DNA of 64,000 bases from an uncultured Methanosarcinales archaeon (GCA_964552945.1 CAZKIP010000005.1:2643-66642), one strand, 5' to 3'; shown: positions 17,600 through 59,698, numbered from the stretch's first letter. The notes: generated from the letters alone by a model not told the origin. Numbers and translations: made by a program.

Positions 17600-17713
17600 C
17601 GGGGCCGCCGCGATTTGAACACGGGTTCCACGACCCCCAGCCGTGGGTGATATCTCTCACGAGAAACTCTGAATAAAAAAGTTTCCTCGCTCCAAGCTAC
17701 ACTACGGCCCCAT
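17600..17713 (-). tRNA. tRNA-Pro (GGG) with ~38-nt intron in the D-arm region
   Basis: Minus-strand read: acceptor GGGGCCG/CGGCCCC, anticodon stem CACGG/TCGTG with loop CTGGGGG, T-arm CCGTG-TTCAAAT-CGCGG, oligo-T after the 3' end; a large insert with a GGAAAC/GTTTCT hairpin interrupts the D-arm. Confidence 0.6.
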
Positions 17714-23975: not shown

Positions 23976-25025
23976 ATGAAAAAAGTAATGATATATGGAT
24001 TGATAATAGTTTCTTTGATAGTTCTAGCTGGATGTGCTCAATACAAAGCCATCGACACTCAAAACGATGAAGATCTTAGCTTAATTGATGAAATTGCAAA
24101 AATTGAAGAAGAATTAGCTCAAGAAGAGATTAAGGAAGATACAACACCAGAAGAAACCACTGATACTGCAGAAGAAGCAGTGGATGAAACAGTAAATGAA
24201 GAAGAAGTTGTAATTCCTGATTTAGATGAAGCAGCAGTAATGAATACAGAAGCAGTAACCATCTCAGTAAAAGAAAATGAGTTAGTTAAAGTTAATGCTA
24301 AAGTTTCAGACCCTGATGAAGATCCAGTTACTTATACTTTCAGCAAACCTCTAAACAATAATGGAGAATGGAAAACCAATTATGGAGATGCAGGAGAATA
24401 CATGGTTACTTTAAAAGCTACAGATGGAAAATTAACCACCGAGAAAGTAATCAAGCTTGTAGTTGAGAGAGTGAACGTTCCTCCAGTTATCGATGGTGTT
24501 AAAGATATAACTATCCTAGAAGGAGAAACGGTTACTTTTGAACCTAAAGTAACAGACCCAAACAACGATGCCGTTACAGTTACAATCTCTGAACCATTGA
24601 AAAGTGGAACTTTTGTAACTGACCATACCAGTTTTGGTGAATACAATATTGTTGTAAGTGCTTCAGATGGAGAATTGGATACTGAAAAAACTTTCAAACT
24701 TACAGTAAACAATGTAAATGAAAAACCAGTTATCTCTGGTCTTGAAGACTTGAAGATTAAGGAAGGAGACGTTGTTAAACTTAAACCAACCGTAACTGAC
24801 TTGGATGAAGACCCAATCACTTTAACTATAAGTGAACCGGTTGGCGACGATGGAATCTGGGCAACATCTTACACAGATAATGGGGAATATGTTATCACTG
24901 TTACTGCAGATGATGGACAAGACAAAATTGTTCAAAAAGTAACTATAACAATTGAGGATATTAACAAAGCTCCAGAAATTGTAGATATTTCCTTAGGACC
25001 AAATAGTCCTGCTGTGAGTAGTTAA
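23976..25025 (+). CDS. Cell-surface lipoprotein with three cadherin/Ig-like repeat domains
   Basis: Lipobox signal MKKVMIYGLIIVSLIVLAGC; Glu-rich linker; ~95-aa repeats sharing DPDEDPVTYTF...W.T.YGDAGEY.V...A.DG; strong GGGGGTG SD. Confidence 0.6.
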   Translation: MKKVMIYGLIIVSLIVLAGCAQYKAIDTQNDEDLSLIDEIAKIEEELAQEEIKEDTTPEETTDTAEEAVDETVNEEEVVIPDLDEAAVMNTEAVTISVKENELVKVNAKVSDPDEDPVTYTFSKPLNNNGEWKTNYGDAGEYMVTLKATDGKLTTEKVIKLVVERVNVPPVIDGVKDITILEGETVTFEPKVTDPNNDAVTVTISEPLKSGTFVTDHTSFGEYNIVVSASDGELDTEKTFKLTVNNVNEKPVISGLEDLKIKEGDVVKLKPTVTDLDEDPITLTISEPVGDDGIWATSYTDNGEYVITVTADDGQDKIVQKVTITIEDINKAPEIVDISLGPNSPAVSS

Positions 25026-25081
25026 TTTTTTTCTTATTTTTTATTTTAAATTTTTTAAAATCAAAAAAAGTGGCGTGAAAA

Positions 25082-27439
25082 ATGAAACATAAAATTGTTA
25101 AACTAGTTTTAGGTGTGGTAATCCTAATTTTAATTCTACAAACCGTTTTTGCCGCCACAAGAGTTTTTCAAGTACAAGAAACAGATTTTGTGAAAATAAA
25201 TGCTAAAGCGATAGACCCAGATTTGGATAAAGTAACTTACCAATTTGGAGAACCACTGGATCAAGATGGCGAATGGCAAACAACCTATGGAGATGCGGGA
25301 GAGTATGAAATTGATGTTAAGGCATCTGATGGAAAAAATGAAACTATCAAAAAAATAAAATTGGTAGTTACTAAAAGAAATCAAGCACCCTATGTTAAAG
25401 AAAAAAAGTTAGTGGCAAAAGAATCTAAAACAGTTAATTTAAAAGAAGCTATCGTTGACCCAGATGGAGATGTTTTAACTTACACATTTAAAGCTCCTTT
25501 TAACGAAAAAGGCGTTTGGCAAACTAATTTTAACGATGCGGGAGAACACACCGCTTCATTTACAGTAACTGATGGAGAATTCTTAATAGAAGCAAAGGTA
25601 AACGTCGTAATTGAGGATAAAAATCAACCCCCTTTCATTGACAACATTTTCTCTGAAGAGGATAAATTAGAGTTTAATGAAGGTGAAGAGTTAAATTTTT
25701 CTGTAAAAGTAAGAGACATAGATAGTGAAAATATTGATTATATTTGGAAATTGGATGGGGCAAAAATTAGTGAAGATAATGAAGGAGAACATGAATTTGA
25801 TTACGATTCTTCCGGTGAACACCAATTGGAACTTCAGGTTAGTGATGGAGAAAACAATATAGAAAGAAGTTGGAAAATTGAAATTGAAAACACCAATAGA
25901 AAACCTGCATTAAGTCTAGAACCAATAACCGTTAATGAAGGAGAATTAGTAAAGTTAATTCTTCCCGGTAAAGATCAAGATGGAGATTCCCTTACCTATG
26001 AACTAGAAAAACCTTTAGATAGTAATGGAAAATGGAAAACTGATTTTGAAGACGCGGGAAAATATTTTGCCGAAGTTGTTGCAGATGATGGGGAATATAA
26101 ATCTCAAACAGAAGTTGAAATAAATGTAGTTGATGTTGACAGAATCCCTACTTTAAACGTACCAACCAGGCTAGAAGTGAAAGAAGGAGAGAAACTTTCT
26201 TGGACAATTGATACTACAGACCCAGATAATGATGTCCTCGACATTAAAGTAATCAATGCACCAGAAGGTTCAATTCTTAATAAGAAAGTCTTTTCATGGG
26301 AACCTGATTTCTCAGCGATAAAAAGAAAGGGTGGATTTGTGAGTAATGTTTTAAATTCGTTAAATTTAGAAAGGTTTTTTCTAAAAATGAAAGTTATCCC
26401 TCTAAAAATTAAAGTATGTGGAAAAAGTTTATGTAATAATAAAGAGTTAGAGTTGGTTGTCTACAATGTAAATCGTCCTCCAGTTATGCAAGGACAAAAA
26501 AACTATACAATTCAAGAAACTGAAGAATTGACAATTGTGCCTTCTGCAATAGACCCAGACGGAGATATTGTTAAGTATGCTTTCTCATCACCAGTTCAAA
26601 AAAGAAGTGGTAAATGGAAAACTAGTTTTGATGACGAAGGGATTTATGATATCTATGTATCTGCCACTGATGGGAGATTTACTGACACATTACCTTTTGT
26701 TGTGAATGTAAAGAAAAAGAATCGTGGGCCTTCATTAAATGTTGATAAAGATGAATTTGTTATTTTAGAAGGTAAAAAGCTATCGTTCAAAGTTACCGCT
26801 TCAGATCCTGATGAAGACAATTTGAATATTGAATTAGAAAATCTTCCTCCTGGAGCTTCGTTTAAAGATGAAACATTTATTTGGACTCCTTCAAAAGAAT
26901 TTGTTAAGAATAAAAGTTCTGGAACCATAAACAAAATATTACAAAAATCTTCATATCTTATCAAAAAATTTAGTGATGACGAAAAAACGCATTGGTTAAA
27001 ATTTTCTGCAGACGATGGAGAAACAAAAACAATTCATCCAGTAAAAGTTATTGTTAAAAACAAAAATCAGGCACCTAAGATCATTGATTATCTTCCTATG
27101 AATAAAACACTTTTTACAGAAGTTAACAAACCTTTAATTTTCCACGTTACAGCAACCGATTCTGATAACGATAAGTTAAGTTACGAATGGAGTTTTGATT
27201 TTGGACAGCAAAAAGTTAGAGGGACTGATACTATTGAAAGAACTTTCCTTACTCCTGGAGAAAAAAAGGTCAAAGTCAAAGTAACTGACGGACTAGAAAC
27301 AGTTGAAAAAGAATGGATGGTTTCTGTACAAGAAGTTCTCTATCCTACTCCAGTTATAATTTCAAATCCTACTCAAAATGTACCTCAAGCACTATCTCCT
27401 CCTGAAACTGAAACTTTTAGGGTAATTGTTATTGAATAG
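25082..27439 (+). CDS. Cell-surface protein with ~8 cadherin/Ig-like repeat domains (paralog of upstream gene)
   Basis: Signal peptide; repeated DPD.D.LTY.F..P....G.W.T.F.DAG.Y motif units along 785 aa. Confidence 0.6.
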   Translation: MKHKIVKLVLGVVILILILQTVFAATRVFQVQETDFVKINAKAIDPDLDKVTYQFGEPLDQDGEWQTTYGDAGEYEIDVKASDGKNETIKKIKLVVTKRNQAPYVKEKKLVAKESKTVNLKEAIVDPDGDVLTYTFKAPFNEKGVWQTNFNDAGEHTASFTVTDGEFLIEAKVNVVIEDKNQPPFIDNIFSEEDKLEFNEGEELNFSVKVRDIDSENIDYIWKLDGAKISEDNEGEHEFDYDSSGEHQLELQVSDGENNIERSWKIEIENTNRKPALSLEPITVNEGELVKLILPGKDQDGDSLTYELEKPLDSNGKWKTDFEDAGKYFAEVVADDGEYKSQTEVEINVVDVDRIPTLNVPTRLEVKEGEKLSWTIDTTDPDNDVLDIKVINAPEGSILNKKVFSWEPDFSAIKRKGGFVSNVLNSLNLERFFLKMKVIPLKIKVCGKSLCNNKELELVVYNVNRPPVMQGQKNYTIQETEELTIVPSAIDPDGDIVKYAFSSPVQKRSGKWKTSFDDEGIYDIYVSATDGRFTDTLPFVVNVKKKNRGPSLNVDKDEFVILEGKKLSFKVTASDPDEDNLNIELENLPPGASFKDETFIWTPSKEFVKNKSSGTINKILQKSSYLIKKFSDDEKTHWLKFSADDGETKTIHPVKVIVKNKNQAPKIIDYLPMNKTLFTEVNKPLIFHVTATDSDNDKLSYEWSFDFGQQKVRGTDTIERTFLTPGEKKVKVKVTDGLETVEKEWMVSVQEVLYPTPVIISNPTQNVPQALSPPETETFRVIVIE

Positions 27440-27515: not shown

Positions 27516-29060
27516 ATGGATCAAACTATCAAATTAGCTTTAGATACCATTAAAATAAATAAACAAGCTATTATTTTTAACCCTAGCAGAGCTAGTGCAG
27601 AGAAAACTGCGGAAGACATTTCTAAACTAACAGATTTATTTCATCCAGAACTTGAGAAAGGAGTTCTGCATTCTATATCAAGCCCTACTAAACAATGTAG
27701 GAGGTTATCTAATTGTGTAAAAAAAGGAATCGCTTTCCATCATTCTGGGTTAACAAGTAAACAAAAAGAAATTGTTGAAGAATCTTTCAAAGAAGGTAAA
27801 ATAAAAATTATATCTGCTACACCTACTTTAGCAGCAGGACTTAGCATGCCTGCTTTCAGAGTAATTATCAAATCTCTTAAAAGATACTCTGGCAGCTGGG
27901 GAATGAATTGGATTCCTGTTTTAGAATATTTACAAATGGCAGGGAGAGCAGGAAGGCCGGAGTATGAAGCTTTTGGAGAATCCATTGTTATAGCAAAAAC
28001 TGAACCTGAGAGAGATGAGATTGTTGAAAGATACATCAAAGGTGTGCCAGAAGACATTTATTCCAAGTTAGCAGCAGAACCGATCTTAAGAACCTACCTT
28101 CTTTCATTAATTTCTTCTGGATTAATCCGTGATGAAGAAAGCATGAACAATTTTTTCAGTAAAACCTTTTGGGCTCACCAGTTTAAAGACATGAATAAGT
28201 TGCAACAGATTATGGAAAAGATGATTCTTTTACTTGAAGAATGGGGATTTATTTCAATCCAAGGAAAAGAGGGAGTTAATTCAGACTTTGTAAGCGCTCA
28301 AGATCTTGACAATAAAAGTAAAAGTAACAAAACAATGAGGCCAACCCTTATTGGTAAAAGAATCTCTGAACTTTATCTTGACCCATTAACTGCAAATCAT
28401 CTTATCAATTGTTTGAAAAATTATGATGACAAAAAAGAACATTTTTCTCTATTACAAATGATTTCCCACACTTTAGAGATGAGACCTCTACTAAGAATCA
28501 AGAAAAAAGAAGAAGAAATTATTAATGAAGAGTTGACAAAAAATTATCATTTGCTTCTTGAAAAAGAACCTTCATCTTTTGATATTGAATATGATGAATT
28601 TTTCAATTCCATAAAAACCTCGCTCTTTTTTGGAGATTGGGTTGATGAAAAAAATGAAGATTACCTTTTAGAGAAATATAATGTTCGTCCAGGAGAAATT
28701 AGAAGCAAGATTGAATCTGCCAACTGGCTAATTTATGCAGCTAAAGAGTTAGCAAAAATAAATGGAGACAATTTGGTAGCACATGAATTAAGAAAACTTC
28801 GAGAGATGGTAAAAAATGGAGTTCGTGAAGAACTTCTTCCACTTCTAAAATTGAAAGGGATTGGGAGAGTTAGGGCTAGAAAACTTTTCTCTCATGGCAT
28901 GAAAGATTTAGGTCATTTGAGAAGAACAGATTTAACGTCTCTTACTCAAATTGTTGGTAAGGCCACTGCTGAAAGTGTTAAGATTCAATTGGGTGAAGAA
29001 ATAAAAGTAATTCCAAAAGGGACTAGGAAAGGTCAATTGAGCATGGAGAAATTTAAATAA
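27516..29060 (+). CDS. Hel308/Ski2-like helicase, C-terminal portion only (RecA2, winged-helix, ratchet and HhH domains; RecA1 missing)
   Basis: Begins directly with the helicase C domain (IAFHHSGL...ISATPTLAAGLSMPAFRVII...QMAGRAGRP) and ends with the GIGRVRARKL HhH domain; no Walker A/DEAH domain; own TATA (AAATATATAAAAG) ~25 nt upstream. Confidence 0.65.
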   Translation: MDQTIKLALDTIKINKQAIIFNPSRASAEKTAEDISKLTDLFHPELEKGVLHSISSPTKQCRRLSNCVKKGIAFHHSGLTSKQKEIVEESFKEGKIKIISATPTLAAGLSMPAFRVIIKSLKRYSGSWGMNWIPVLEYLQMAGRAGRPEYEAFGESIVIAKTEPERDEIVERYIKGVPEDIYSKLAAEPILRTYLLSLISSGLIRDEESMNNFFSKTFWAHQFKDMNKLQQIMEKMILLLEEWGFISIQGKEGVNSDFVSAQDLDNKSKSNKTMRPTLIGKRISELYLDPLTANHLINCLKNYDDKKEHFSLLQMISHTLEMRPLLRIKKKEEEIINEELTKNYHLLLEKEPSSFDIEYDEFFNSIKTSLFFGDWVDEKNEDYLLEKYNVRPGEIRSKIESANWLIYAAKELAKINGDNLVAHELRKLREMVKNGVREELLPLLKLKGIGRVRARKLFSHGMKDLGHLRRTDLTSLTQIVGKATAESVKIQLGEEIKVIPKGTRKGQLSMEKFK

Positions 29061-29795: not shown

Positions 29796-30497
29796 ATGGC
29801 TAAAACCAGAAAAAAAGTAAGAGAACACAAAACAAGAAAGAAGCCTCACTCAGAGATACTTACAGTTATGTTTATTGATATCGTTAGTTATACAAAAACT
29901 ACTGCAAATTTGAGTAGAGAAAGGTTTGATGAGTTACATGAAACATTTGATGAACTTTCCCTTCCTGTATTTGAGAAGCATGAAGGAACCGTAATTAAGA
30001 AAATTGGAGATGCTTTCATGATAACTTTCAAAACTGCGACAGACGCGGTTCTTTGTGGGATGGATCTTCAGAATACTTTTAGAAGTTACAATAGAGAGTA
30101 CAAACTTAAAATGCCTCTTCAAATAAGGGTGGCTTTACACGCAGGAGAAGTTTTAGTTAGAAAAGGTGATGTTTATGGGGATACCGTTAACACTGCTGCT
30201 AGAATAGAAGGAATTGCTTCTGCTAACGACATTTATTTCAGTGAATCGGTTTATAATGCCATGAATAAAAAAGAAATTCCTTACTTATTTATTGGCCAAA
30301 GGAAGTTGAAAGGATTAAAAGTTCCGCTTAGAATTTTCAGGGTTAAGAATTCTTTGGATAGGAAGAAAGAGAGACAAAGAAAGTTAAAAAGAATGAAGAA
30401 AAGGTTTTACAGGTTTTTATGGAAGATCTTTGCTTTGGCTGCTTTACTTGGTCTGCTAATTTTCATTTATGTTTATTTGATTAGAAATTTCTATTGA
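29796..30497 (+). CDS. Class III adenylate/guanylate cyclase catalytic domain with C-terminal membrane anchor
   Basis: FIDIVSYT...KKIGDAFMITF...TVNTAARIEG core motifs; basic stretch then a TM helix at the C-terminus. Confidence 0.65.
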   Translation: MAKTRKKVREHKTRKKPHSEILTVMFIDIVSYTKTTANLSRERFDELHETFDELSLPVFEKHEGTVIKKIGDAFMITFKTATDAVLCGMDLQNTFRSYNREYKLKMPLQIRVALHAGEVLVRKGDVYGDTVNTAARIEGIASANDIYFSESVYNAMNKKEIPYLFIGQRKLKGLKVPLRIFRVKNSLDRKKERQRKLKRMKKRFYRFLWKIFALAALLGLLIFIYVYLIRNFY

Positions 30498-36234: not shown

Positions 36235-36507
36235 ATGGAGCAAAAAGAGGAGAAACTATCACGAGCGATTAGTGCCTATTCTAGAAGACAAATTCTTAGA
36301 CTTCTTGCAGATAAAGAATTAACCGTAAAAGAAATTGCTGCTAAGACCAATCTTTCTGTTTCCCTTGCCTCAAGACATCTAAAATTACTATATGATCTTG
36401 GTTTTCTAACTGTAAGAAAAGAATATCCTTTCAAATATTATTCTCTTAAGATAAAAGAAATGAAAAGCTTGCTTGAAATGTACGATAAGGTAATTAAAAA
36501 AATATGA
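36235..36507 (+). CDS. ArsR-family winged-helix transcriptional regulator
   Basis: RRQILRLLADKELTVKEIAAKTNLSVSLASRHLKLL HTH typical of ArsR/SmtB; stop overlaps the next start (ATGA). Confidence 0.6.
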   Translation: MEQKEEKLSRAISAYSRRQILRLLADKELTVKEIAAKTNLSVSLASRHLKLLYDLGFLTVRKEYPFKYYSLKIKEMKSLLEMYDKVIKKI

Positions 36508-39500
36508 AAAGAAAAATAAGAAGTAAAAAAGCGGAGAAATGCCTGCACAAGGAAAGAGTTATCCTAGTAATGTTACTCTCAGCAGTACTGCTATTCTTCT
36601 TAGCAAGTAGTCCAAACTTTGGAACTAAAACTATTGTCGATTCGGTAGATTATTTTAATCAAGTTAGCTTATTTGATGGGAGTTCTATAACAGGAGCAGC
36701 CGTTATTGGCATATCTAGTACCGACAATGACGATGATTTAGGAACTTTTGTTGATGATTTTGCTGATGGGATAAGTAATACTTCAAGATGGTTCAATCAT
36801 ACAACTAGAATGACCATACATCATGAAAATGAATTGATGAGATTTAATGCCTCATTAGCTTCAACTGAAGGAAACGCATCAATTATAACTATAGAGAATT
36901 TGTCTATGCATTCATTTAATATAACTGCAAATGTAACCTTACAAAATACATCAGATAGTCTTTCTACTGATGCATTGGCAACAATAGAATTAAGTTTATT
37001 TAACCAAACTAACCTTTCTCAAACCACAACATGTTCAGTAAATTTAGAAGAATCCTCAGGTGGAGCATATTATTTATATTTCGGAAACTCCACCACAAGT
37101 AATCCACCTCCAACAATTATTAATGCAGAAATGGCAAATATTGGAGATAATTTGACAGGACTCCTGAGAATGGAGTATATTAATGACACTGAAACAATCA
37201 ATTGTACTTTTACCACTGGATTTGATTCTTACTCTGTCAAAGGTGTTACTAAAGACATAGGACAAGATTTTGGAGCAGGCATTTTATCACAATTAACTAC
37301 TCAAGGAGGTGCCGCTTCAGGTGATGTGAATGCCACAATTGCGTCATTTAATTATAGTTTGGCTCCAGTTGCAAGTGCAAATAACGAACCTACCTCTACC
37401 ATCCTTCTAAACACAACAGATTTAACAGCAAACGATACCAATCAAAACTTAACAGCTTATTCAGAGACAAGTGATTTAGACAATGATGATGTATTTGTTG
37501 TTTACAATTGGTTATTAAATGGTTCATCTGTGATGGTCCTAAACATGCCTTTCTTGCCAAATGACAATAATGAAAGTGCTTCTACCCACAACTATGCTCT
37601 TGGTGATAATGGAAATAATACAGGAGGGGCATCATGGAACTCCACAGGAGGTTTTGATTTCAATGGCAGCTATGAATTTGATAGTATCGATGATTATCTT
37701 TCTTTAGAAAATTCCGGCCAATATGAACCTACCATGAATTTTAGCATAGAAGCATGGGTTTATGTAAAAGGCAGTGGAAACAACGGAGGACAAAATGGAA
37801 TCGTTAATAAAGACGGAGGGTTCAACGATGGTTTTAATTTTGCGATTGGTGATTCTTCTGCCCCAACAGTAAATTTTGGAACTGGAGATTCTGGAGCCAG
37901 TGACATTGAAACAATCACAGAATTAAATCTCAACGAATGGACCCATGTTGTTGCTTCATATAATGGAAGTAATACTTCAATTTACATCAATGGCGCGTTA
38001 GACTTTGTTGGTACAAGAACTGGTGCTTTAGCCTATAGTACAGGCGATTTAGAAATAGGAAGAAATAGGGATACACCACCCGGACAGGAAGGATATTTCA
38101 ATGGTTCCATTGACAACGTTAGAATTTGGAATATAACTTTAACCCCTGAACAAATTTCTGCTCTTTACAAAAATAGAACAGACCTAATCGTTTCACAAGA
38201 ATTAAGTGTAGGAGATAATTGGACAGTAGATGTAACTCCAAACGATGGAGTTCTTGATGGAGCAATTAATAGATCTAACGATTTGTTGGTGTTAGATGTT
38301 ACTGCACCAGCAGCCAACAATGACCCTACCTCTACCATCCTTCTAAACACAACAGATTTAACTAAAAATGATACCAATCAAAACTTAACAGCTTATGTAG
38401 ACACAAGTGATTTAGATGCTGATACAGTAAACGTTGTTTACAACTGGTTATTAAATGGTTCATCTGTGATGGTCCTAAATATGCCTTTCCTACCAAATGA
38501 TGGAAATGAAACTGCTTCTACCCACAACTATGCTCTTGGAGATAATGGAAATGTTACTGGTGCTACATGGAATTCTACAGGTGGTTTTGATTTCAATGGC
38601 AGTTATGAATTTGATAGTGTTGATGATTACATTTCTATAAGAGATAGAAGTGAGTTTGAATTAACCTCAAATATAACAATAGAAGCGTGGTTCTATTTGA
38701 AAGGCAATGGGAGCACAGGGATTAGTGGTCTTTTAAATAAAGATGGTGGGTTTGGCAATGGATTTGATATTGAATTAGGAACTGATGATCTTTTGAATGT
38801 AGCTTTCAACACCGGAGATTTTGGATCAACAACTTTAGAAACTGCTGCAAACGCAATTTCTCTTAACAGATGGACCCATTTGGTAATAATGTATAATGGA
38901 AGCAATACTTCTATTTATATTGATGGCGCTTTAAATGTAGTTGGTACGAAAACTGGCGCATTAACTTACAGCACTGGAGATTTAGAGATAGGTAGGGCAA
39001 TTAACTCCAGTGGACAAGAGGGTTATTTCAATGGTTCCATAGATAACGTTAGAATTTGGAATAGAACTTTAACCCCTGAACAAATTTCTGCACTCTACAA
39101 AAACAGGACAGATTTAATAGTTTCTCAAGAATTGAATGTAGGAGATAATTGGACAGTAGATGTAACTCCAAACGATGGAGTTCTTGATGGAGCAATTAAT
39201 AGATCTAACGATTTGTTGGTGTTAGACATAGTTGCAGCTGCTCCTAGTTGTGGAACTCTTACTTCTAATACTACTTTAACAGAGGACATTAATTCTACTG
39301 AAACATGTTTCACTATTGGTGCTCATGGAATTACTTTAGATTGTGATAATTATTTAATCAACTATTCCACAGAAGGTAGCGGAAATGGAATAGATAATAC
39401 AGGATATCACAACGTAACAATTAAAGATTGTAGGATTGAACAATACGGAAATACAGGAGAAGCAATTCTATGGGATGACGCTAGAAGTGGTAAATTAATT

Positions 39501-42425
39501 AACAACACCATTATAACTTACACTGCAACATCGCCAGCAATTTTTATACCTCCAAATTCCAATAATACTTATATCACAAAAAACAACCTAACTACAAAAG
39601 ATAACTCTTATGCCCTAGATGTTGTTGGAAGAGACAACAACATTACAAATAATACCTTTTTATCAACTAATTCAGCTGGGATAAGAGTTGTTTATGCTCA
39701 AGGGGTGAAGAATTTATTCAAAAACAATTTCATCCAAGGATATCCTTTTGGTTCCATTGGAATTGATGTAAACAACCTCAATAATACTTTTTTAAACAAT
39801 ACAATAATCATGAATAGTTCTTCATCATGGGGAGTTCGTATTACAGATGGTAACTACACTCATCTTGAAAACAATACAATAAATGTAACAGGAGCAACAA
39901 GCTATGGGATATATCTTTCTGATAGTTCTGAAAGAAACTCTTTAATTAACAATCTTCTAGAAACTAATTCCTCAGATTCATTTTCAATTTTCGATGAAAC
40001 TGATGACAATAAAATAAATTATATGAGTTACATTAACGCATCAAGCAAAATTGAATGGGTGGATAATGGATCAAGAAGTTTCTTAAGAAATTTAACTTTT
40101 AATGGGACCATTGGTCCAAATACAAACATTTATTTAGGAAATGGAACCGTAGCTGTCGATACATCGGCATTTGACAATGGAAAAATTAATTCTACTGTCA
40201 ACATTACTTTTTATGGATTAGATTTAGAATTTGCAGATGCAGTTATCAAAATCCATAGTTTTAGCACAGATGGTGTAACCATAGATAGTTCAGGTTCAGA
40301 TTGTGTAGGAGATTCTTGTGAGATTATTAGTTACACTGGAGGGACTTTAAGATTCAATAGTACATCATTGGGAAGTTTATTTGCAAACAACTCAGAGGAT
40401 TTAACTCCACCAAATGTAACCATCCTAACTCCAATAAACACAAGTAATTTTTCAAAAACATCTAGTAATCAAACATTTAACGTAAGTATTAATGAGGCTA
40501 ATATTTATGGGGTATTATTCATTTTTGATAATGGTTCTGGAGTAGATTTCAACATTACAGCAAATAACAATTCGGGATATTGGGCTGCACCATACAACGT
40601 TTCCACTTTGGCAGAAGGAACACAAACAGTTAGAGTGTCTGCAAATGATACGGCAGGAAACATAAATAGTACACAACAGGTTACAATTACAACAGATTAT
40701 ACAGCCCCAAATGTAACTATCATCTCACCAACTAACAGAAGCAATTACTCCTTTACTTCAAGCAATCAAACGTTCAACACATCAGTATTTGATGCAAACA
40801 TCAAAACAGTCTGGTTCTCATTTGATAATGGAACGGGAACAGATTTTAACATTACAGCAAATAATAACTCTGGGTATTGGGCTGCACCATACAATGTATC
40901 AACACTAGCAGAAGGAACACAAACAATAACGATTATAGCAAACGATTCAGCAGGAAATGTAAACACAACACAAAGCATTACAATAACAACTGATTACACT
41001 GTACCTGTAGTTAACATCACATTCCCAACTAACGGAACCAATTTCAGCATTGGATCTTATAATCAAACTTTCAATGTAAGTATCCAAGAAAGAGACATAG
41101 GAACTGTCTTATTTAATTTTGATAATTCATCCGGAACAGGATTCAACCTTACTCCAACAAATCAATCAGGATATTGGGTAGCTAGTTACAATGTTTCAAA
41201 GCTAGCAAATGGAACACACCTATTAACAATTTTAGTTAACGACACTGTAAACAATAAAAATAATACGCAAACAATAAATTTCACTTTTGATAATAGAACA
41301 ATGCCTGTCGCTCCTGCCCCTGCAGGTGCAGGAAATACAGGAAGTAGTGGAGGAGGAGGTTCAAGTTCCTCCTCTGATTCAGGAGGGGGAGGGTCCCTTC
41401 CAATAAAAGAACCCGCTCCTAAATCGGTTGCCCCTGAAGATTTTGAAAAATCAGAAAAAGATGTTGTAGAAGAAAAAGTAGAAAAAGAAGATTCAAGTGA
41501 ACAAGTAGATTCAAAAGGAGTAGCCGCAACTACTATAAAAGCCCTTAAATCTGCCAAGTCTACTTTTAGCGCAACTGGGAAAGCATTTTTCTCTGGAGAA
41601 TTTTTATTAGATATGTCTGGGGTTTGGATTCTATTAATCTCCCTAATGTTACTTTCTGTATTGTTATTATTTGTTACCTTTAGACACAAGAAGCGCTTTA
41701 TCCCTTATTATGTTTCAGATTATCCCTCTCCAGAATTACAAGTTGAAAGAACCAGCCATTTACGCCAATTAAGATCACAAGTAAGAAATGCGGGTGCTGG
41801 AGTTAAGAGAGAAATTAGTTCTTTATTAGCTAAAGGAAGAATTCATCAAACTTCTTTGAAATGGCTACAGAATTGGGTCGAAACGATGCAAGGCAAAGGA
41901 GATTCGGAAGCTAAAATAAAGAGCTTATTACAACATAATCCTAATGTGACCCCTCAGATGATTAAAGTGGTTTTAGATAGAATAAAAGCTAAAAAGTTAT
42001 TGCAGAAGAAATATTCTCTATCCTTAAAAGAATTAGAGAAAATTGAAAAAGTGGTACTTAAGTTAGTTAAAAAAGGAAAAACCATCTCTGAGATAAAATC
42101 TATCTTCTCTGAAAATGGGTGGGATTCTTCAATCCTAGGTCCTTTTATTGAAGCATATTCCAAACTAGTACGTAAAAGAAAATTTGTTGCTTATGGTGCA
42201 CTTCAAATTTCACAAAAATTAGCAAGAAAAATGGTCAAAAAAACTCACAATTTATCTTCCATCGAGATAAAACAATTAGAATCTTTCATTGACGATTGTT
42301 ATAATAGAAACATTCCTATGGGGGAAGTAGTTGATGGTTTGGTTGAAAGTGGATGGACTTACAAGGAGATTGATTCATTGGTTAGAATACGTTATCGGAT
42401 GGGCCTTTATAATGTTGTCCTATGA
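36504..42425 (+). CDS. Giant (1973 aa) cell-surface protein: signal/TM, two LamG-like domains, right-handed beta-helix region, three Ig-like repeats, G/S/P linker, TM anchor and ~270-aa cytoplasmic tail; extremely rich in N-x-S/T sequons
   Basis: LamG signatures (W.HV...YNG.N.SIYING...GYFNGSIDNVRIWN) twice; NNTI/NNLT beta-helix repeats; three ~95-aa repeats (P.NVTI..P.N.SN.S....NQTFN ... SGYWAAPYNVSTLAEGTQT); C-terminal TM VWILLISLMLLSVLLLFVTF. Confidence 0.7.
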   Translation: MKRKIRSKKAEKCLHKERVILVMLLSAVLLFFLASSPNFGTKTIVDSVDYFNQVSLFDGSSITGAAVIGISSTDNDDDLGTFVDDFADGISNTSRWFNHTTRMTIHHENELMRFNASLASTEGNASIITIENLSMHSFNITANVTLQNTSDSLSTDALATIELSLFNQTNLSQTTTCSVNLEESSGGAYYLYFGNSTTSNPPPTIINAEMANIGDNLTGLLRMEYINDTETINCTFTTGFDSYSVKGVTKDIGQDFGAGILSQLTTQGGAASGDVNATIASFNYSLAPVASANNEPTSTILLNTTDLTANDTNQNLTAYSETSDLDNDDVFVVYNWLLNGSSVMVLNMPFLPNDNNESASTHNYALGDNGNNTGGASWNSTGGFDFNGSYEFDSIDDYLSLENSGQYEPTMNFSIEAWVYVKGSGNNGGQNGIVNKDGGFNDGFNFAIGDSSAPTVNFGTGDSGASDIETITELNLNEWTHVVASYNGSNTSIYINGALDFVGTRTGALAYSTGDLEIGRNRDTPPGQEGYFNGSIDNVRIWNITLTPEQISALYKNRTDLIVSQELSVGDNWTVDVTPNDGVLDGAINRSNDLLVLDVTAPAANNDPTSTILLNTTDLTKNDTNQNLTAYVDTSDLDADTVNVVYNWLLNGSSVMVLNMPFLPNDGNETASTHNYALGDNGNVTGATWNSTGGFDFNGSYEFDSVDDYISIRDRSEFELTSNITIEAWFYLKGNGSTGISGLLNKDGGFGNGFDIELGTDDLLNVAFNTGDFGSTTLETAANAISLNRWTHLVIMYNGSNTSIYIDGALNVVGTKTGALTYSTGDLEIGRAINSSGQEGYFNGSIDNVRIWNRTLTPEQISALYKNRTDLIVSQELNVGDNWTVDVTPNDGVLDGAINRSNDLLVLDIVAAAPSCGTLTSNTTLTEDINSTETCFTIGAHGITLDCDNYLINYSTEGSGNGIDNTGYHNVTIKDCRIEQYGNTGEAILWDDARSGKLINNTIITYTATSPAIFIPPNSNNTYITKNNLTTKDNSYALDVVGRDNNITNNTFLSTNSAGIRVVYAQGVKNLFKNNFIQGYPFGSIGIDVNNLNNTFLNNTIIMNSSSSWGVRITDGNYTHLENNTINVTGATSYGIYLSDSSERNSLINNLLETNSSDSFSIFDETDDNKINYMSYINASSKIEWVDNGSRSFLRNLTFNGTIGPNTNIYLGNGTVAVDTSAFDNGKINSTVNITFYGLDLEFADAVIKIHSFSTDGVTIDSSGSDCVGDSCEIISYTGGTLRFNSTSLGSLFANNSEDLTPPNVTILTPINTSNFSKTSSNQTFNVSINEANIYGVLFIFDNGSGVDFNITANNNSGYWAAPYNVSTLAEGTQTVRVSANDTAGNINSTQQVTITTDYTAPNVTIISPTNRSNYSFTSSNQTFNTSVFDANIKTVWFSFDNGTGTDFNITANNNSGYWAAPYNVSTLAEGTQTITIIANDSAGNVNTTQSITITTDYTVPVVNITFPTNGTNFSIGSYNQTFNVSIQERDIGTVLFNFDNSSGTGFNLTPTNQSGYWVASYNVSKLANGTHLLTILVNDTVNNKNNTQTINFTFDNRTMPVAPAPAGAGNTGSSGGGGSSSSSDSGGGGSLPIKEPAPKSVAPEDFEKSEKDVVEEKVEKEDSSEQVDSKGVAATTIKALKSAKSTFSATGKAFFSGEFLLDMSGVWILLISLMLLSVLLLFVTFRHKKRFIPYYVSDYPSPELQVERTSHLRQLRSQVRNAGAGVKREISSLLAKGRIHQTSLKWLQNWVETMQGKGDSEAKIKSLLQHNPNVTPQMIKVVLDRIKAKKLLQKKYSLSLKELEKIEKVVLKLVKKGKTISEIKSIFSENGWDSSILGPFIEAYSKLVRKRKFVAYGALQISQKLARKMVKKTHNLSSIEIKQLESFIDDCYNRNIPMGEVVDGLVESGWTYKEIDSLVRIRYRMGLYNVVL
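37385..39236 (+). repeat. Near-identical ~930-bp tandem duplication inside the giant surface-protein gene (copy 1 ~37385-38315, copy 2 ~38323-39236)
   Basis: Long stretches identical between copies (e.g. 38190-38300 vs 39128-39236); also shown by identical antisense ORF peptides at 38165-38377 and 39125-39313. Confidence 0.75.
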
Positions 42426-42570: not shown

Positions 42571-45033
42571 ATGACCCATTCAGAAATACAAAAAAGCTCA
42601 GATCATGACAAAATTGTTCCTCGTGTTATTGAGGAGGAAATGAAGACAGCTTACATTAATTATGCCATGTCAGTTATTGTAGGTAGGGCCCTTCCAGATG
42701 TCAGAGACGGCTTAAAACCAGTGCATAGGAGGATCCTATATGCTATGTTTGAAATTGGTTTAACTCACAATAAGTCTTTTAAAAAATGTGCTAGAATTGT
42801 AGGTCAAGTTTTAGGTGCATATCATCCTCATGGTGATGCTTCAGTTTACGATGCTTTGGTGAGAATGGCACAAGATTTCTCGCTCCGTTATCCATTAATT
42901 AGGGGACAGGGTAATTTTGGTTCCATTGATGGTGATTCTGCAGCTGCATATCGTTATACAGAAGCTAAGTTAAACAAGTTTGCTGAGGAACTTCTCAAAG
43001 ATATTGATAAAAAAACAGTTATTTTTAAAGACAATTTTGACGGTTCTCTACAAGAACCTTCGGTTCTTCCATCTAAGATTCCTAACCTTTTGGTAAATGG
43101 TTCTTCTGGTATCGCCGTAGGAATGGCTACCAACATCCCCCCTCACAATTTAACTGAAGTTTGTGAAGGAGTTATTTCATTAATTGATAATCCTGAAATT
43201 ACTGTTGAAGAATTAATTAAAATTATTCCTGGTCCCGATTTTCCTACTGGGGGGACTATTAATTGTGGGAGTGCTCTTTATCATGCTTATGCTCACGGGA
43301 AAGGTAAAGTAACAATAAAAGCGGTATCCGATGTTACGGATAGTAAAATAATTATTAGCGAGATTCCTTATCAAGTTAACAAGGAAGAGATGATTAAACA
43401 AATTGCTAATTTAGTTAGAGACAAAGTTATTACAGGAATTCGTAATATTAACGATGAATCTGATAAAGATGGGATTAGGGTTGTAATTGATCTTAAACAA
43501 GGTACAGATGGTCAAGTCATTTTAAATCAACTTTACAAACATAGTCGTTTAAAAATTTCTTTTGGGATGAATATGCTGGCTTTAGTAGATTCTCGGCCTC
43601 GAGTTCTTGGATTGAAAGATATTTTGCATTATCACATTCTCCATAGAAAAGAAGTAATTACCAATAAAACAAAATATGAGTTGGAACAAGCTCAGAAGAG
43701 GGTCCACATTTTAGATGGATTACTTGTTGCGCTTAACAATATTGATGAAATTATTCCAGGTATAAAGAGAAGTAGGACAGTAGATGAAGCAGAACTATTT
43801 CTAATGGAAGGATACTCTCTTTCTAAGATTCAAGCCAAAGCCGTTTTAGAGATGCGATTACAGAAATTGGCTTCTTTGGAGCAAGATAAAATTAGGGATG
43901 AACACAAAAGTTTATTGGAAAAAATTGAAGAATTTTTAGCAATTTTATCTTCTGAAGAAAAAGTTCTAAACATTATCAAGCAAGAAATGGAAGAAATGAA
44001 AAACAATTATGGAGATGAAAGGCGTTCACAAATTGTTATTGGGGATGATGACGGCGGATTTGACATTGAAGAATTGATTGAAGAAGGAACCGCTGTTGTA
44101 ACTCTTACCAATGCAGGATATGCAAAAAGACTGTCTATTGATACCTATAAAGTTCAACATAGAGGGGGAAGGGGGGTAAAAGCTGCTGGAACAAAAGATG
44201 AAGATTTTGTAGAAAGATTATATGTTACTTCAACTCACGATTATCTTCTTTGTTTTACCGATAAAGGACAAGTTTACTGGCTTAAAGTTTATTTAATACC
44301 TGAAGGAAGTCGTCAATCTAAAGGGAAACATATCGCAAATTTACTTGAACTTAAAGAAGGAGAAAAAATAAATGCCATAATCCCCGTCCGTGATTTTAAA
44401 GAAGGCTATCTATTCATGGCAACTAAGAAAGGAACGGTTAAGAAAACTGAACTAACTTGTTTCTCAAAACCTCGAAAAGGAGGAATTAGGGCCATTGCTC
44501 TAGATGATGACGACTCTTTAATTGGTGTTAAACATACTTCTGGAGAGAAAGAGATTATATTAGCTACCAAAGAAGGTCAAGCAAATCGTTTTAATGAACA
44601 AAATGTCCGTCCAATGGGTAGAACAGCAAGAGGAGTTCGAGGAATTCGTCTTAAGGGAGAAGAAGATTATGTTATTGGTATGATTATTGCAGAAGAAGGT
44701 AAAAATATTCTTACTTTGACAGAGAAAGGTTATGGTAAAAGAACTCCAATTAGTGATTATCGGTTATGTAATAGAGGAGGGAAAGGAGTTACAAACATTA
44801 AGGTTACAGAAAAGAATGGTCCAGTTCAATCTATCAAAGTAACAAGTGGCGATGAAGAATTAATGCTTGTATCTAAGCAAGGTATTGGAATAAGGATAAG
44901 ATGTGATTCTATCTCAACTATTGGAAGGGCTACTCAAGGAGTTAGAGTGATGAGATTGGGCGAAGGAGATCAACTTGCTGCCGCAGCAAAAATTGTTATT
45001 GAAGATGAAAATGTGGAAGAAACTGAAGAATGA
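42571..45033 (+). CDS. gyrA: DNA gyrase subunit A
   Basis: N-terminal [28 protein letters not shown], active-site Tyr region, GyrA-box [12 protein letters not shown] and C-terminal beta-pinwheel repeats; 820 aa. Confidence 0.85.
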
Positions 45034-47619: not shown

Positions 47620-49926
47620 GTGATTATTATTACTTTTGAATTCTCTTTTAATACCACAACCCACTGGTCAACCACAGATAAACTATTTAAAGCACCTTCT
47701 CTCCTAATATTTGTGATTAAAGATTTTCAACCAAGACTATATCAACAGACTATTTTAGGCACTGCCGCACATAAGAATACTTTGGTAGTTTTACCTACGG
47801 GATTAGGGAAAACAGCAGTAGCACTTATGCTTACTGCACAAAGATTGAATCAATATCCTAATTCTAAAATAATGATGTTGGCCCCAACCAAACCCTTATG
47901 TGAACAACATCTGGAGACTTTCAAAAAACATTTAGATATCGATGAAGATAAAATTGTTCTTTTTACAGGTAGCGTTTCACCAAAAAAGAGAGGGGAACTA
48001 TGGAAAAAAGCAAAATTGATTATTTCTACTCCTCAAGGCATGGAAAATGATGCAATTAACGAGAGAGTTAAACTAAAAGAAGTTAGCCTACTTATTTTTG
48101 ATGAAGCCCACCATGCCACAGGAGATTATGCTTATGTTTGGTTAGCACAACAATTCGAAAAACTTTCTACCAAAGCCAGAATTTTGGCTCTGACCGCTTC
48201 TCCAGGAAGTGACATGGAAAAAATAAAAGAAGTCTGTACAAACTTGAATATTGAAAAAGTAGAAGTTAGAACAGAAAAAGATCCTGATGTTAAACCCTAT
48301 ATTCAAAAAACAAAAGTTAATTGGCTAGGGGTTGATTTTCCCAAGGAATTAAAAAAAATTCAAACTTCCTTAAAAAATTGTCGTAAGAGTAAATTATTGG
48401 AAGCTAAAAAATATGGGTATTGTAAATCATTTGATATGACAAAAACTGAATTGTTGAGACTTCAAGGAGAATTTCAGAGAGACATTTCGAAAGGACATAG
48501 GGATTTTGAATTGTTACGTTCGGTATCCTTAATTGCGGAAGCACTTAAAGTGGATCATGCCTTGGAATTACTTGAATCACAAGGAGTAAAACAGCTACAT
48601 AAATATTTGACAAAAATAAGCTCTGAAGCGCTAACTTCAAAAGTAAAAGCTGTCAAAAATTTATCCATAGACCTAAATTTTAAAACAGCTTCCTATTTAA
48701 CTGAAGAAATTTTAAAAGGAGAATTTGTCCATCCCAAATTTCTGAAGCTGAAAGAACTTGTCAATGAAATTATGCAAAAAGATGGTTCTTCTAAAATGAT
48801 AATTTTTACACAATATCGCGATTCTGCTCAGGAGATTATTCGTACTATAAACGAAATGAAAATAAAAAATCATATTTTTGTTGGACAGGCAAAAAAGAGC
48901 GGGCTAGGTTTCTCTCAGAAAAAACAAAAAGAAATATTAGATAAATTTAGAGTTGGAGAATTTAACATTTTGGTAGCTACTTCTGTGGCAGAAGAAGGAT
49001 TAGATATTCCAAAGGTAGACAAAGTTATCTTTTTTGAACCTGTACCTTCTGCAATTAGGTCAATTCAAAGAAAGGGAAGAACAGGGAGATTAGAAGAAGG
49101 AGAGGTTATTGTTTTACTAACAACTGGAACAAGGGATGAAGCATATCGTTGGTCTTCTCATCATAAAGTTAAGAGAATGTATCGTAATCTTGAGAAATTA
49201 AAAAATGAATTCTCATTTTTACATGAAAAAAAGGAAAACACAACTTTAAATAGGTTTATTCCAGAAGAAAAAGTAGTTACAGTTCTTGCGGATCATAGAG
49301 AGAAGGATAATCGAATAGTTAAAGAATTAATTAATTTGGGAGTTTCTGTAAAAACTGCTCAATTGGATTCAGCAGATTATGTTCTTTCTGGAAAGGTTGG
49401 TGTTGAATTAAAAAAAGTTTCAGATTTTGTTTCTTCAATAATTGATGGGCGCCTTCTAGATCAAGTCCGTCACTTGAAAAACAATTTTGAGAAATCTGTT
49501 TTGGTCATTGAAGGAGATGAAGACATTTATTCAGTTAGGAAAGTTCATGGGAACGCTATTAGGGGAATGTTATCTTCAATCGTACTAGATTTTCAAGTAC
49601 CCATCCTTTACACAAAAAATCCTCCAGACACGGCTTCCCTTTTAGCAGTGATGGCCAGAAGAGAGCAGGATAAAACTTCCGATTTTTCTTATCATCCTTT
49701 GAAACCCAAATCATTTGCTGAGCAACAAGAGTATATCGTTTCCTCTTTTCCTTCATTAGGTGTTTCCAATGCGAGAAAACTTTTAATCCATTTTGGTTCA
49801 ATCAAAAATATTGTTAATGCTAGCAAGGAAGAATTGAAGTCAATAGAAGGTATTGGAGAAAAAATTGCTGAAGGAATCATGTCTATAGTAAATAAACAAT
49901 ATGAAAAAAATAAAAAAACAAAATAA
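47620..49926 (+). CDS. hef: Hef (archaeal XPF/FANCM-like) helicase-nuclease; likely real start at in-frame GTG ~47713
   Basis: SF2 helicase motifs LPTGLGKT, DEAHH, TASP, QRKGRTGR; C-terminal ERCC4 nuclease (VLADHREKD...ADYVLS...VERKK-like) and (HhH)2 domains; ORF N-terminus has no Met before the helicase motif I region. Confidence 0.8.
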   Translation: MIIITFEFSFNTTTHWSTTDKLFKAPSLLIFVIKDFQPRLYQQTILGTAAHKNTLVVLPTGLGKTAVALMLTAQRLNQYPNSKIMMLAPTKPLCEQHLETFKKHLDIDEDKIVLFTGSVSPKKRGELWKKAKLIISTPQGMENDAINERVKLKEVSLLIFDEAHHATGDYAYVWLAQQFEKLSTKARILALTASPGSDMEKIKEVCTNLNIEKVEVRTEKDPDVKPYIQKTKVNWLGVDFPKELKKIQTSLKNCRKSKLLEAKKYGYCKSFDMTKTELLRLQGEFQRDISKGHRDFELLRSVSLIAEALKVDHALELLESQGVKQLHKYLTKISSEALTSKVKAVKNLSIDLNFKTASYLTEEILKGEFVHPKFLKLKELVNEIMQKDGSSKMIIFTQYRDSAQEIIRTINEMKIKNHIFVGQAKKSGLGFSQKKQKEILDKFRVGEFNILVATSVAEEGLDIPKVDKVIFFEPVPSAIRSIQRKGRTGRLEEGEVIVLLTTGTRDEAYRWSSHHKVKRMYRNLEKLKNEFSFLHEKKENTTLNRFIPEEKVVTVLADHREKDNRIVKELINLGVSVKTAQLDSADYVLSGKVGVELKKVSDFVSSIIDGRLLDQVRHLKNNFEKSVLVIEGDEDIYSVRKVHGNAIRGMLSSIVLDFQVPILYTKNPPDTASLLAVMARREQDKTSDFSYHPLKPKSFAEQQEYIVSSFPSLGVSNARKLLIHFGSIKNIVNASKEELKSIEGIGEKIAEGIMSIVNKQYEKNKKTK

Positions 49927-57898: not shown

Positions 57899-59698
57899 TT
57901 AATCAAATAATGTTTTTTGCCTTTCTCCTTTACTTTCTTCTTCATTCTCTTCTTCAGCATTTTTAGTTTCTTCTTTTTCTACTTCCTTCTCTACTTTTTC
58001 ATCATTTTTGACTTCTTTGTTTTCATTTTCCTTAGGTTCTTCTTTTCCAATTTTTGCTAATTCCGGATCATAATCTGGATTATTTACACCAATTTCTTCC
58101 AGCTCTCCTCTTGTGTGTTCTAAAATTTCACCCAGATTGTCTTCAATTATTTTTTTATTAATTTCATCAAATCCAATTATTTCTTTCAATGCATCTGCAA
58201 CATGGGGGATGTATTTTTCAATGTAACTTCTTTTCTTAGCTTCATCTTTTATCCTTTTCTTTTTATTAACAAAACTTGCAAGTTTACGCCCACACTCTTG
58301 CAATGATAATTTTATTTCTTTAATTATTCCATTGTAATGGGCCAAAGCTTCTTTAGATTCTGAAGTAAAAGGGACCCACACAGAAGTCATATGGATGACG
58401 ATGGTACAAGGACCTACAGGAATAGAACTTCTACTTTGTTGTAAACCATAATTTCTCCAGGAGGTATTTTGAACAGAATTGGTTATTGCACAAGCCCCTT
58501 GTTGGTATAGTAGAGGAACTCTATTTGCAAAACGCATAATTCTAACAGTGGAATCTGCAGATTGTTCTCCACCATAAGCCATTGCAGTTTCAATAACAAA
58601 AGGATTCCCTCTGTAAACACTAGCCGGTCTTGTGGCTGAACAATAGAACTCTGCATTTATTTCTTTCCTTAAACCTTTTTCTAACAATTCTGCGCCAATG
58701 GGGGAAATACAATCTGTAGGCGGAGAAATTATTTTTGTTTTTTGAATGCCTTTATACAAATTCTCTGCCATATCTCTCCCAATTTTTTTAGGTTTTGTTT
58801 TTGGCAATAAAGAAGAATTAGCACAAATTTCTTTAGCTGTACCTGCCCCTACTCTTACAAACTCGCTAGTTAGAAATTGTTGAAGAGTTTTTGCTGGAGT
58901 TGTTTCCAACATTTTGATAAGCCTTCCCAGTTCTATTCCATAAGGGTGGGGTTTAATCTCTTTAGGTTCTGGAGGTAAATCTTCGCTTGCTCTTGGAAAA
59001 ATAAATTGTTTTGCTTCAGGATTCGTATAAATTACTGTACAATGAGGATTTACAATAGCTGTTTGTTTAAGATATTCATCAACGGATTGTCTTCCTTTGT
59101 TGTAACTTCCTTCCATGTCAATCTCAATTTTGGTTCCGTGATCTTTTTCTTCCCATTCAATTTCTTCTTCTCCTAACAATTGAGGGTTGTTAGTTTGAGT
59201 GTTAATTTTTATCTTAACTAAGTTGGCCATTTCAGATTTACCAGTTTTAGAAACAATTGTGGCTGGTTTACCTGTAGTGAGTTGTCCATATAAAACGGCT
59301 GCCGAGATACCTATCCCTTGTTGTCCTCTGGTTGCAGATAGTTTATGGAATTTACTCCCATAAAGAAGCTTAGCAAAAATTTTTGGAATTTGTTTTTTAA
59401 TTATCCCTGGCCCGTTATCTTCTATGATTACCCTAAACCTACTATCACTTAGTTGAATAAGCTCCACATTTATCTCTGGCAAAATTCGTGCTTCTTCACA
59501 TGCATCTAGTGCATTGTCAACTGCTTCTTTCACAGCTGTCATCAAAGCTCTTCTTGGATTGTCAAAGCCTAATAAATGTCTGTTCTTTTCAAAGAATTCG
59601 GCAATTGATATCTCTCGATGTTTCTTTGCTAGTTCCTGAGCTGTCTTTTTAACCATTTGAAAAATGTAAAATTTAGTCTTTTTATAAGGTTTACTCAA
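57899..59698 (-). CDS. top6B: DNA topoisomerase VI subunit B (GHKL ATPase)
   Basis: Bergerat-fold motifs ELVDNALDA-like ([12 protein letters not shown]), [19 protein letters not shown]; transducer domain; Glu/Lys-rich tail. Confidence 0.85.

Follow-up and report, generated by a model that had tools for sequence, protein, structure and literature searches.

An open reading frame (ORF) related to the archaeal DNA helicase Hel308/Hjm was studied in a stretch of 64,000 nucleotides (nt) from an uncultured Methanosarcinales archaeon (GCA_964552945.1 CAZKIP010000005.1:2643-66642), which is referred to below as the window and which has a G+C content of 32.9%. As read in the window sequence, the ORF at positions 27516-29060 (+) is intact, starts with ATG, and encodes a protein of 514 amino acids (aa). 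Hel308 is a repair helicase conserved in archaea and in eukaryotes (HELQ and the helicase domain of Pol theta), in which the RecA1 and RecA2 domains move relative to each other in an ATP-driven manner. The ORF very probably encodes the large C-terminal subunit (C-half) of a two-subunit Hel308, the gene of which is split in a conserved way across a large clade of DPANN archaea, with the N-terminal part (N-half) being the product of a separate gene.

Pfam analysis of the 514-aa product revealed a Helicase_C domain (residues 63-148, E = 4e-11) and no DEAD or ResIII domain. When the product was compared with PDB chains using phmmer, the top matches were the archaeal Hel308/Hjm proteins 2p6r, 2zj2, and 2va8; residue 11 of the ORF was paired with residue 238 of A. 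fulgidus Hel308 (2p6r, 702 aa; E = 1.5e-82, envelope from residue 231) and residue 6 with residue 228 of P. furiosus Hjm (2zj2, 720 aa), both alignments reaching the C-terminus. Since the alignment with Hel308/Hjm begins at ~228-238, approximately 230 N-terminal residues, which make up the RecA1 domain, are absent from the ORF. With regard to the features of Hel308 (COG1204), the product contained a RecA2 domain with motifs IV, IVa, V, and VI, followed by a winged helix, the ratchet domain, and the helix–hairpin–helix (HhH) domain 5 (Table 1), and motifs I, Ia, II, and III of RecA1 were missing from this polypeptide. The RecA2 domain was present without its first hairpin (Hjm residues 198-~216). 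The match to PF21280 spanned 124 of 125 profile positions, and the HhH domain was aligned with 2p6r up to residue ~678. Thus, the preliminary description of this DNA, according to which the gene encodes only the C-terminal two-thirds of the helicase, lacks RecA1, and runs from motifs IV-VI through the winged-helix, ratchet, and HhH domains, agrees with the sequence, the Pfam domains, and the Hel308/Hjm alignments, and the alignment with full-length Hel308 places the start of the C-half at residue 231/238 of 2p6r and at residue 228 of 2zj2.

Table 1. Positions of the candidate C-half gene, its putative promoter, and the motifs and domains of its product in the window.
Feature	Position (nt)	Strand	Characteristics
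Candidate C-half gene of split Hel308	27516..29060	+	RecA2 minus first hairpin, winged helix, ratchet, HhH; 514 aa
TATA-like box TATATAAAA	27487..27495	+	Ends 20 nt before ATG; putative archaeal promoter, putative leaderless transcript
Motif IV AIIFNPSR, residues 18-25	27567..27590	+	F21, R25 invariant in 53 homologues
Motif IVa AFHHSGL, residues 73-79	27732..27752	+	A73, F74, H75, H76, G78, L79 invariant in 53 homologues
Motif V ATPTLAAGLSMPA, residues 101-113	27816..27854	+	T102, P103, L105, G108, P112 invariant in 53 homologues
Motif VI QMAGRAGRP with arginine fingers, residues 140-148	27933..27959	+	9/9 residues invariant in 53 homologues
Winged-helix domain, residues 154-246	27975..28253	+	Pfam HTH_61, E = 8e-7; aligned to Hel308 domain 3
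Ratchet domain 4, residues 311-435	28446..28820	+	Pfam PF21280 Helicase_dom4_arc, E = 9e-30
Helix-hairpin-helix domain 5, residues 442-493	28839..28994	+	Pfam HHH_5, E = 1.4e-7; G450, R453, R455 invariant

Homologues of the C-half were sought among 5.8 billion clustered proteins. The best 120 clusters all comprised proteins of 502-549 aa, which covered 96-100% of the query with an identity of 63-70%; where named, they belonged to metagenome-assembled genomes (MAGs) of 'Candidatus Woesearchaeota' or 'Nanoarchaeota', some of the contigs being 275-844 kb long. An exhaustive search of the 50%-identity representatives revealed three architectures of the C-half region, namely, short forms sharing the start of the window ORF (40 representatives, identity down to ~40%), ordinary full-length Hel308 proteins of 690-780 aa, in which the query was aligned from residue ~212-275, and intein-interrupted forms of 950-1700 aa. 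In the alignment of 53 short forms, the residues F21/R25 of motif IV, AFHHxGL of motif IVa, TPxL..G...P of motif V, and QMAGRAGRP of motif VI were invariant, as were the ratchet-helix tryptophan and the glycine and arginines of the HhH domain. This tryptophan, W404 in the ORF, corresponds to W599 of A. fulgidus Hel308 and lies in a ratchet domain modelled with a predicted local distance difference test score (pLDDT) of 85-96; the equivalent of the ratchet arginine was offset (R396/K398) and did not occupy the position aligned to R592 of the A. fulgidus protein.

Upstream of the C-half gene, an ORF encoding a PKD/Big surface protein was located at 25082-27439 (stop codon included), so that a spacer of 76 nt is left before the ATG of the C-half, as had been stated in the preliminary description. 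A TATA-like box is present within this spacer. A cTTAATAAA box was found 21-23 nt before the ATG at five related C-half loci, and, in general, A/T-rich TATA-like boxes ended 20-23 nt short of the start codon, for the C-half in six lineages and for the N-half in about ten. In archaeal promoters, a box located 20-23 nt from the ATG corresponds to an essentially leaderless transcript; therefore, the spacing found in both families points to independent, essentially leaderless transcripts, and the earlier suggestion that the helicase gene has a TATA box of its own is consistent with the presence of a box at an equal distance in its relatives. A scan for sigma-70 promoters and terminators yielded counts at the background level, this model being uninformative for an archaeon. 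PKD/Big genes also precede the C-half in the P0068, P0003, P0021 (with a spacer of 45 nt), and P0061 lineages, and a gene with a guanylate-cyclase domain was found downstream of the C-half in the P0068 and P0021 lineages as well as in the window.

The position of a large surface-protein gene just 76 nt upstream is what would be expected if a full-length hel308 had been truncated by the insertion of the surface-protein locus and the remaining ORF were now decaying, which was one of the explanations proposed at first. This explanation is extremely improbable. The ORF is intact and retains every conserved motif, at least 120 clusters share its truncated architecture and its start, PKD genes precede the C-half in no fewer than four further lineages (one of them with the spacer of 45 nt), and the promoter-like box is conserved. 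Moreover, tblastn with full-length and N-half queries detected neither an intact nor a decayed coding sequence for a Hel308 RecA1 domain in the 64-kb window, and thus no debris of it upstream of the ORF. When the orthologous loci of the relatives were compared, the truncated start, the promoter box, and the upstream PKD genes all proved to be conserved, at an identity of 65-70%. Consequently, a recent gene-breaking insertion is excluded, since the truncated form, the motifs, and the genomic setting are conserved across lineages.

The sole weak tblastn match for RecA1 in the window was the RecA1 domain of an unrelated helicase, Hef, encoded at 47620-49926 (+). This gene, the only one for a DExH helicase in the window, was considered as the missing partner and rejected, because it encodes a complete Hef. 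The protein (768 aa) contains DEAD, helical bundle, Helicase_C, ERCC4, and HhH2 domains and represents a superfamily 2 (SF2) helicase that is unsplit in the same genome region.

It should be noted that the surface-protein genes upstream of the C-half form a pair in the window (PKD/Big_9/cadherin-like, 349 and 785 aa, 23976-27439 (+)) and that genes of this type also adjoin the C-half at L001 5383-8842, L091 1099-4643, L180 1-1455, and L190 1-224; a cell-surface locus is thus linked to a DNA-repair gene across several lineages that are just 65-70% identical. The downstream gene of the window (29796-30497 (+)) encodes an adenylate/guanylate-cyclase-domain protein of 233 aa with a basic and transmembrane C-terminal tail, and cyclase-domain genes were found just downstream of the C-half elsewhere, too (L001 12613-13275; L180 3067-3681).

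RecA1 domains were taken from the three most closely related full-length proteins, and their profile served as a bait for the N-half. The top matches were nearly all stand-alone proteins of 219-230 aa that contained PF00270/PF04851 only and were 57-65% identical to the bait; they originated from Woesearchaeota/Nanoarchaeota, i.e., from the taxa of the C-halves, and a second search with one stand-alone RecA1 protein as the query gave the same picture. In total, 87 N-half loci were analyzed, 80 of them from Joint Genome Institute (JGI) metagenome contigs (N-half alignment scan) and seven from an exact-protein look-up. The N-half ORFs whose stop codon was in view (86 of the 87) encoded 216-233 aa, with a mode of 220, and ended 0-12 residues past the conserved C-terminal sequence WRPVKLxKGxYxxGEIEF, while the 87th ran off its contig. 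Walker A (TPTxSGKT), DExH, SAT, and W-R-P-V..L..G were invariant in the alignment of 24 N-halves. The neighbourhoods of the N-half genes were varied and of a housekeeping type: in GCA_018303625.1, the gene lay between GalT and a convergent, overlapping FtsY/SRP54-type gene, and other N-halves adjoined tRNA methyltransferase or tyrosine recombinase genes. In particular, a gene for a 258-aa tyrosine recombinase (Phage_integrase, possibly XerA-like) ended 24 nt before the start of N-half P0415 (L191 9200-9976; also in L192-L196).

The C-half was not found in any of the 87 N-half loci (up to 10 kb each, 841 kb in total), the N-half neighbourhoods contained no orthologues of the window genes and hence shared no synteny with the window, and tblastn with N-half queries revealed no N-half in the 64-kb window. 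Thus, both halves are intact and conserved, occupy separate loci, and have TATA-like boxes of their own, as is characteristic of a split gene. As the source of the window is a metagenome-assembled contig (95,979 bp), an error of assembly or gene calling, by which the N-terminal part would lie in a misassembled or unassembled adjacent region, was also taken into account; its probability is practically negligible, since the same junction (upstream gene, short spacer, and ATG-Asp start) was assembled independently in many samples and lineages, and since in 86 loci the N-half genes stop in frame, the genes that come next being unrelated and often convergent.

At the level of families, the N-half and the C-half tile Hel308 without overlap and leave uncovered only a loop of ~10 residues, which in P0143, the closest unsplit relative, reads VDFFKEKEGLKLKQEIQDPTAN. 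The N-half was aligned to residues 1-218 of 2p6r and to residues 15-214 of 2zj2. Domain 1 of Hjm comprises residues 1-197 and domain 2 residues 198-399 (PMC2636818); hence, the cut does not coincide with the domain border but falls within RecA2, 17-30 residues in, and the first RecA2 beta-hairpin stays with the N-half. The AlphaFold2 model of the N-half (pLDDT 88.5) contained a terminal hairpin with strands 210-213 and 216-219 and was superposed on the first 220 residues of Hjm/Hel308 with a template modelling (TM) score of 0.90-0.92 and a root-mean-square deviation of ~1.9 Å. For the AlphaFold2 model of the C-half (pLDDT 81.4), the best PDB matches were Hjm/Hel308 (E ~1e-28), and the model was confident in the winged helix, ratchet, and HhH domains (domains 3-5, pLDDT 85-96).

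Alternatively, the product of the ORF could be a stand-alone accessory protein that works without RecA1, e.g., in ATP-independent DNA binding or branch recognition, in which case the ~220-aa family would be unrelated or absent. The lack of an N-half in the 64-kb window, the negative outcome of the attempts to pair the halves within one genome, and the location of most DNA contacts of Hel308 in domains 2-5 (PMC2636818) are in line with such a role. It is nevertheless unlikely, because motifs IV, IVa, and V and the arginine fingers of motif VI are invariant in the 53 homologues, and residues acting only at the ATP site shared with RecA1 are not expected to be fixed otherwise; in addition, there is an N-half family with an exactly matching boundary, the same taxa, and the same nearest unsplit relatives, and it is this family that carries the first hairpin missing from RecA2 of the C-half. 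The domain-only protein envisaged in the preliminary description is therefore improbable, given that the invariant motifs V and VI imply a partner with Walker A/B.

The halves of the N. equitans DNA polymerase are joined by a split intein. A comparable covalent joining of the Hel308 halves after expression, by a split intein or RNA trans-splicing, would restore a single-chain protein. This polymerase is among the split genes of N. equitans (PMC3655853), and inteins do occur in the Hel308 family, split-type C-halves such as P0124 carrying a contiguous intein in motif V; even so, covalent joining was judged to be very improbable. No split-intein fragments were found at the junction, where the N-halves have 0-12 extra residues and the C-half begins with Met-Asp, so that there is no room for N-terminal (~100 aa) or C-terminal (~35 aa) fragments, and the start of the C-halves (MD..KLALDTI) is directly homologous to Hel308 and lacks a Cys/Ser/Thr +1 nucleophile. 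Since neither end of the junction has spare sequence and the C-half starts with Met-Asp, rejoining at the protein level is unlikely.

Inteins were observed at other positions of the gene. The split-type C-halves P0124, P0128, P0134, P0140, and P0151 (~950-1040 aa) contain a large intein inside motif V with a homing-endonuclease-like insert; in P0124, the junctions are PTL/CLSRD...VHN/SAG, and the insertion site follows ATPTL (window ~27830). Interruptions at query position ~106 or ~140 are also found in many unsplit relatives, which are 1000-1700 aa long. Thus, the same gene family has been both split and invaded by inteins.

The conclusion that Hel308 consists of two subunits in these organisms is held with considerable confidence and rests on the complementary boundaries, the common taxa, the common nearest unsplit relatives, and the conservation of the ATP-site residues. 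Several points weigh against it. Pairing of the N- and C-halves by NCBI accession neighbourhood or locus tag gave 0 matches among 30 clusters, and no contig with both halves was found via exact-protein look-ups; the best result was the co-occurrence of N-half P0415 and C-half P0010 in three assemblies, each of which holds several Woesearchaeota. In the model of the C-half, residues 101-190 of RecA2 (nt ~27816-28085, including motifs V and VI) had a pLDDT of 52-80, with several 10-residue blocks at 52-66 and one at 80, which may be due to the absence of the partner and its hairpin or may simply reflect a weaker prediction. Furthermore, the assembly of the subunits and their helicase activity are deduced from genes and models, and the tethering role of the hairpin is derived from the domain boundaries of halves that were modelled separately.

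Two other attempts to place both halves in one genome are to be mentioned. A scan of species-representative genomes with in-silico fusions of the N- and C-halves returned only unsplit relatives, the ranking in such a scan favouring contiguous genes. A gene for a DEAD-box helicase of ~480-490 aa (ResIII/DEAD/Helicase_C) was found beside the C-half in L173 (1-974 (-)) and 8.5 kb from the N-half in L191 (19-1452 (+)); it was considered as a shared neighbour joining the two loci and rejected, since the copies, with an identity of just ~45%, represent either different genes or distant orthologues, so that the loci do not join. Of the initial proposal of a split gene with its N-terminal half encoded elsewhere, the existence of a complementary ~220-aa RecA1 family in the same taxa has been established, and the N-half gene is presumed to be present in this particular genome.

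Since the front third of the protein has a gene of its own in a large group of tiny DPANN archaea, the ATP-driven motor is most likely built from two proteins. According to the proposed mechanism, the unlinked ~220-aa gene would encode RecA1 (Walker A, DExH, and SAT) together with the first RecA2 beta-hairpin, the C-half would supply the remaining part of RecA2 (motifs IV-VI), the winged helix, the ratchet, and the HhH domain, and each half-gene would be transcribed from its own TATA-like promoter. The N-half (~25 kDa) and the C-half (~59 kDa) are predicted to form an obligate, non-covalent heterodimer, in which the hairpin of the N-half may complete the RecA2 sheet of the C-half and thereby tether RecA1 beside motifs V and VI. 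The ATP site would then be rebuilt at the RecA1/RecA2 interface, giving a Hel308-type 3'-5' motor for replication-fork and repair DNA structures. The split Hel308 most likely works as a 3'-5' SF2 DNA helicase in the same manner as Hel308/Hjm.

The nearest relatives of both halves were unsplit genes of the P0143 type, the identity being 51% for the C-half and 57-65% for the N-halves, and the closest unsplit genes in species-representative genomes belonged to MAGs labelled Woesearchaeota, Nanoarchaeota, Aenigmatarchaeota, or Pacearchaeota. In the neighbour-joining tree of the shared C-half region (131 representatives), all 40 split forms were located on one side of a 46-tip bipartition, with five unsplit sequences interspersed among them; this bipartition was recovered in 0 of 100 bootstrap replicates. 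The simplest reading is one ancient fission within this lineage; the unsplit genes among the split forms in this rough tree could also reflect repeated fission at the same loop, or re-fusion. It is unlikely, though conceivable, that the split is more than a neutral consequence of genome reduction, in the sense that the ATPase would be switched on only upon assembly, under the control of the expression of RecA1 as a 'key' subunit, and that it was perhaps gained and reversed repeatedly.

Among the other genes of the window, a gene for DNA gyrase A (820 aa) was identified at 42571-45033 (+) with no adjacent gyrB. Upstream of it lies the gene for a 1973-aa surface protein and downstream that for a THUMP methyltransferase, with an overlap of 4 nt. 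The 1973-aa ORF (36504-42425 (+)) contains two Laminin_G_3/concanavalin-like domains and several bacterial Ig-like domains and is probably a surface adhesin, as often found in episymbiotic DPANN archaea. The gene for the topoisomerase VI B subunit was located at 57899-59698 (-), 13 kb from gyrase A, so that gyrase and Topo VI occur together in a small-genome archaeon. The sole tRNA gene in the 64 kb encodes tRNA-Pro(GGG) (69 nt, 17601-17669 (-)), and no candidates for split or intron-containing tRNAs were detected in the window by ARAGORN.

In sequence and in the predicted fold of domains 2-5, the C-half matches archaeal Hel308/Hjm (COG1204; 2p6r, 2zj2, and 2va8), and the N-half matches domain 1 and the first hairpin of domain 2. 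Unlike the characterised Hel308 proteins, which are single chains of ~690-740 aa, the motor considered here is derived from two unlinked genes cut inside RecA2, and, with the cut at this position, two polypeptides must come together to form the ATPase site. Split protein genes have been described in N. equitans and Nst1, where they include those of reverse gyrase, Lhr, AlaRS, RNA polymerase B, and others (PMC3655853). The split Hel308 is similar to these in that it occurs in a related DPANN lineage and that a normally single gene is represented by two distant ORFs, the products of which have to come together after translation; the SF2 helicase Lhr is itself split there. However, Hel308 is not on the lists for Nanoarchaeota, and its split spans a very large, mostly mesophilic clade (thousands of clusters), whereas the splits of Nanoarchaeota are found in one or two genomes of hyperthermophiles. 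Naturally split reverse gyrases (N. equitans and M. kandleri) reassemble as active heterodimers (PMC4117796) and, like the split Hel308, represent a two-subunit nucleic-acid enzyme with an SF2-type motor. In these enzymes, the split is at the helicase/topoisomerase border (N. equitans) or within the topoisomerase (M. kandleri), and both RecA domains remain on one chain, whereas in the split Hel308 most of RecA2 is cut off from RecA1. Intein-containing Hel308/Lhr helicases likewise have an interrupted coding sequence for the helicase core, e.g., aLhr2, the RecA domains of which are interrupted by inteins (PMC8301817); there, the intein is excised and a single chain is restored, whereas no intein parts are present at the junction of the split Hel308.

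Text searches of PMC and bioRxiv revealed no description of a split Hel308. 'Partial' sequences were removed in the main survey of archaeal Ski2/Hel308 (PMC10946056). The available portion of an archaeal genome-wide fusion/fission screen makes no mention of a split Hel308 and describes fusion/fission proteins as widespread among the lineages of Archaea, with DPANN and Ca. Hydrothermoarchaeota as the exceptions (PMC11237513). In public annotations, the halves are designated as 'hypothetical protein', 'helicase-related protein', or 'DEAD/DEAH box helicase'. Split protein genes are already known as a hallmark of Nanoarchaeota, and Hel308 would be a new case.

The helicase concerned has been studied thoroughly, and the cut, which is conserved over a very large clade, passes through its motor core. 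The annotation of the genes would have to be corrected, and these organisms would be counted as lacking Hel308 in surveys from which 'partial' sequences are removed (such as PMC10946056). If the two-subunit structure is true, it would provide a natural system for studying the SF2 ATP site and inter-domain coupling under a broken chain and would show how a donated beta-hairpin can hold subunits together. Because the split boundary is shared across a deep divergence, it is a potential phylogenetic marker, and the hallmark of split genes would be extended from the hyperthermophilic Nanoarchaeota to a very large, mostly mesophilic clade of the Woesearchaeota type.

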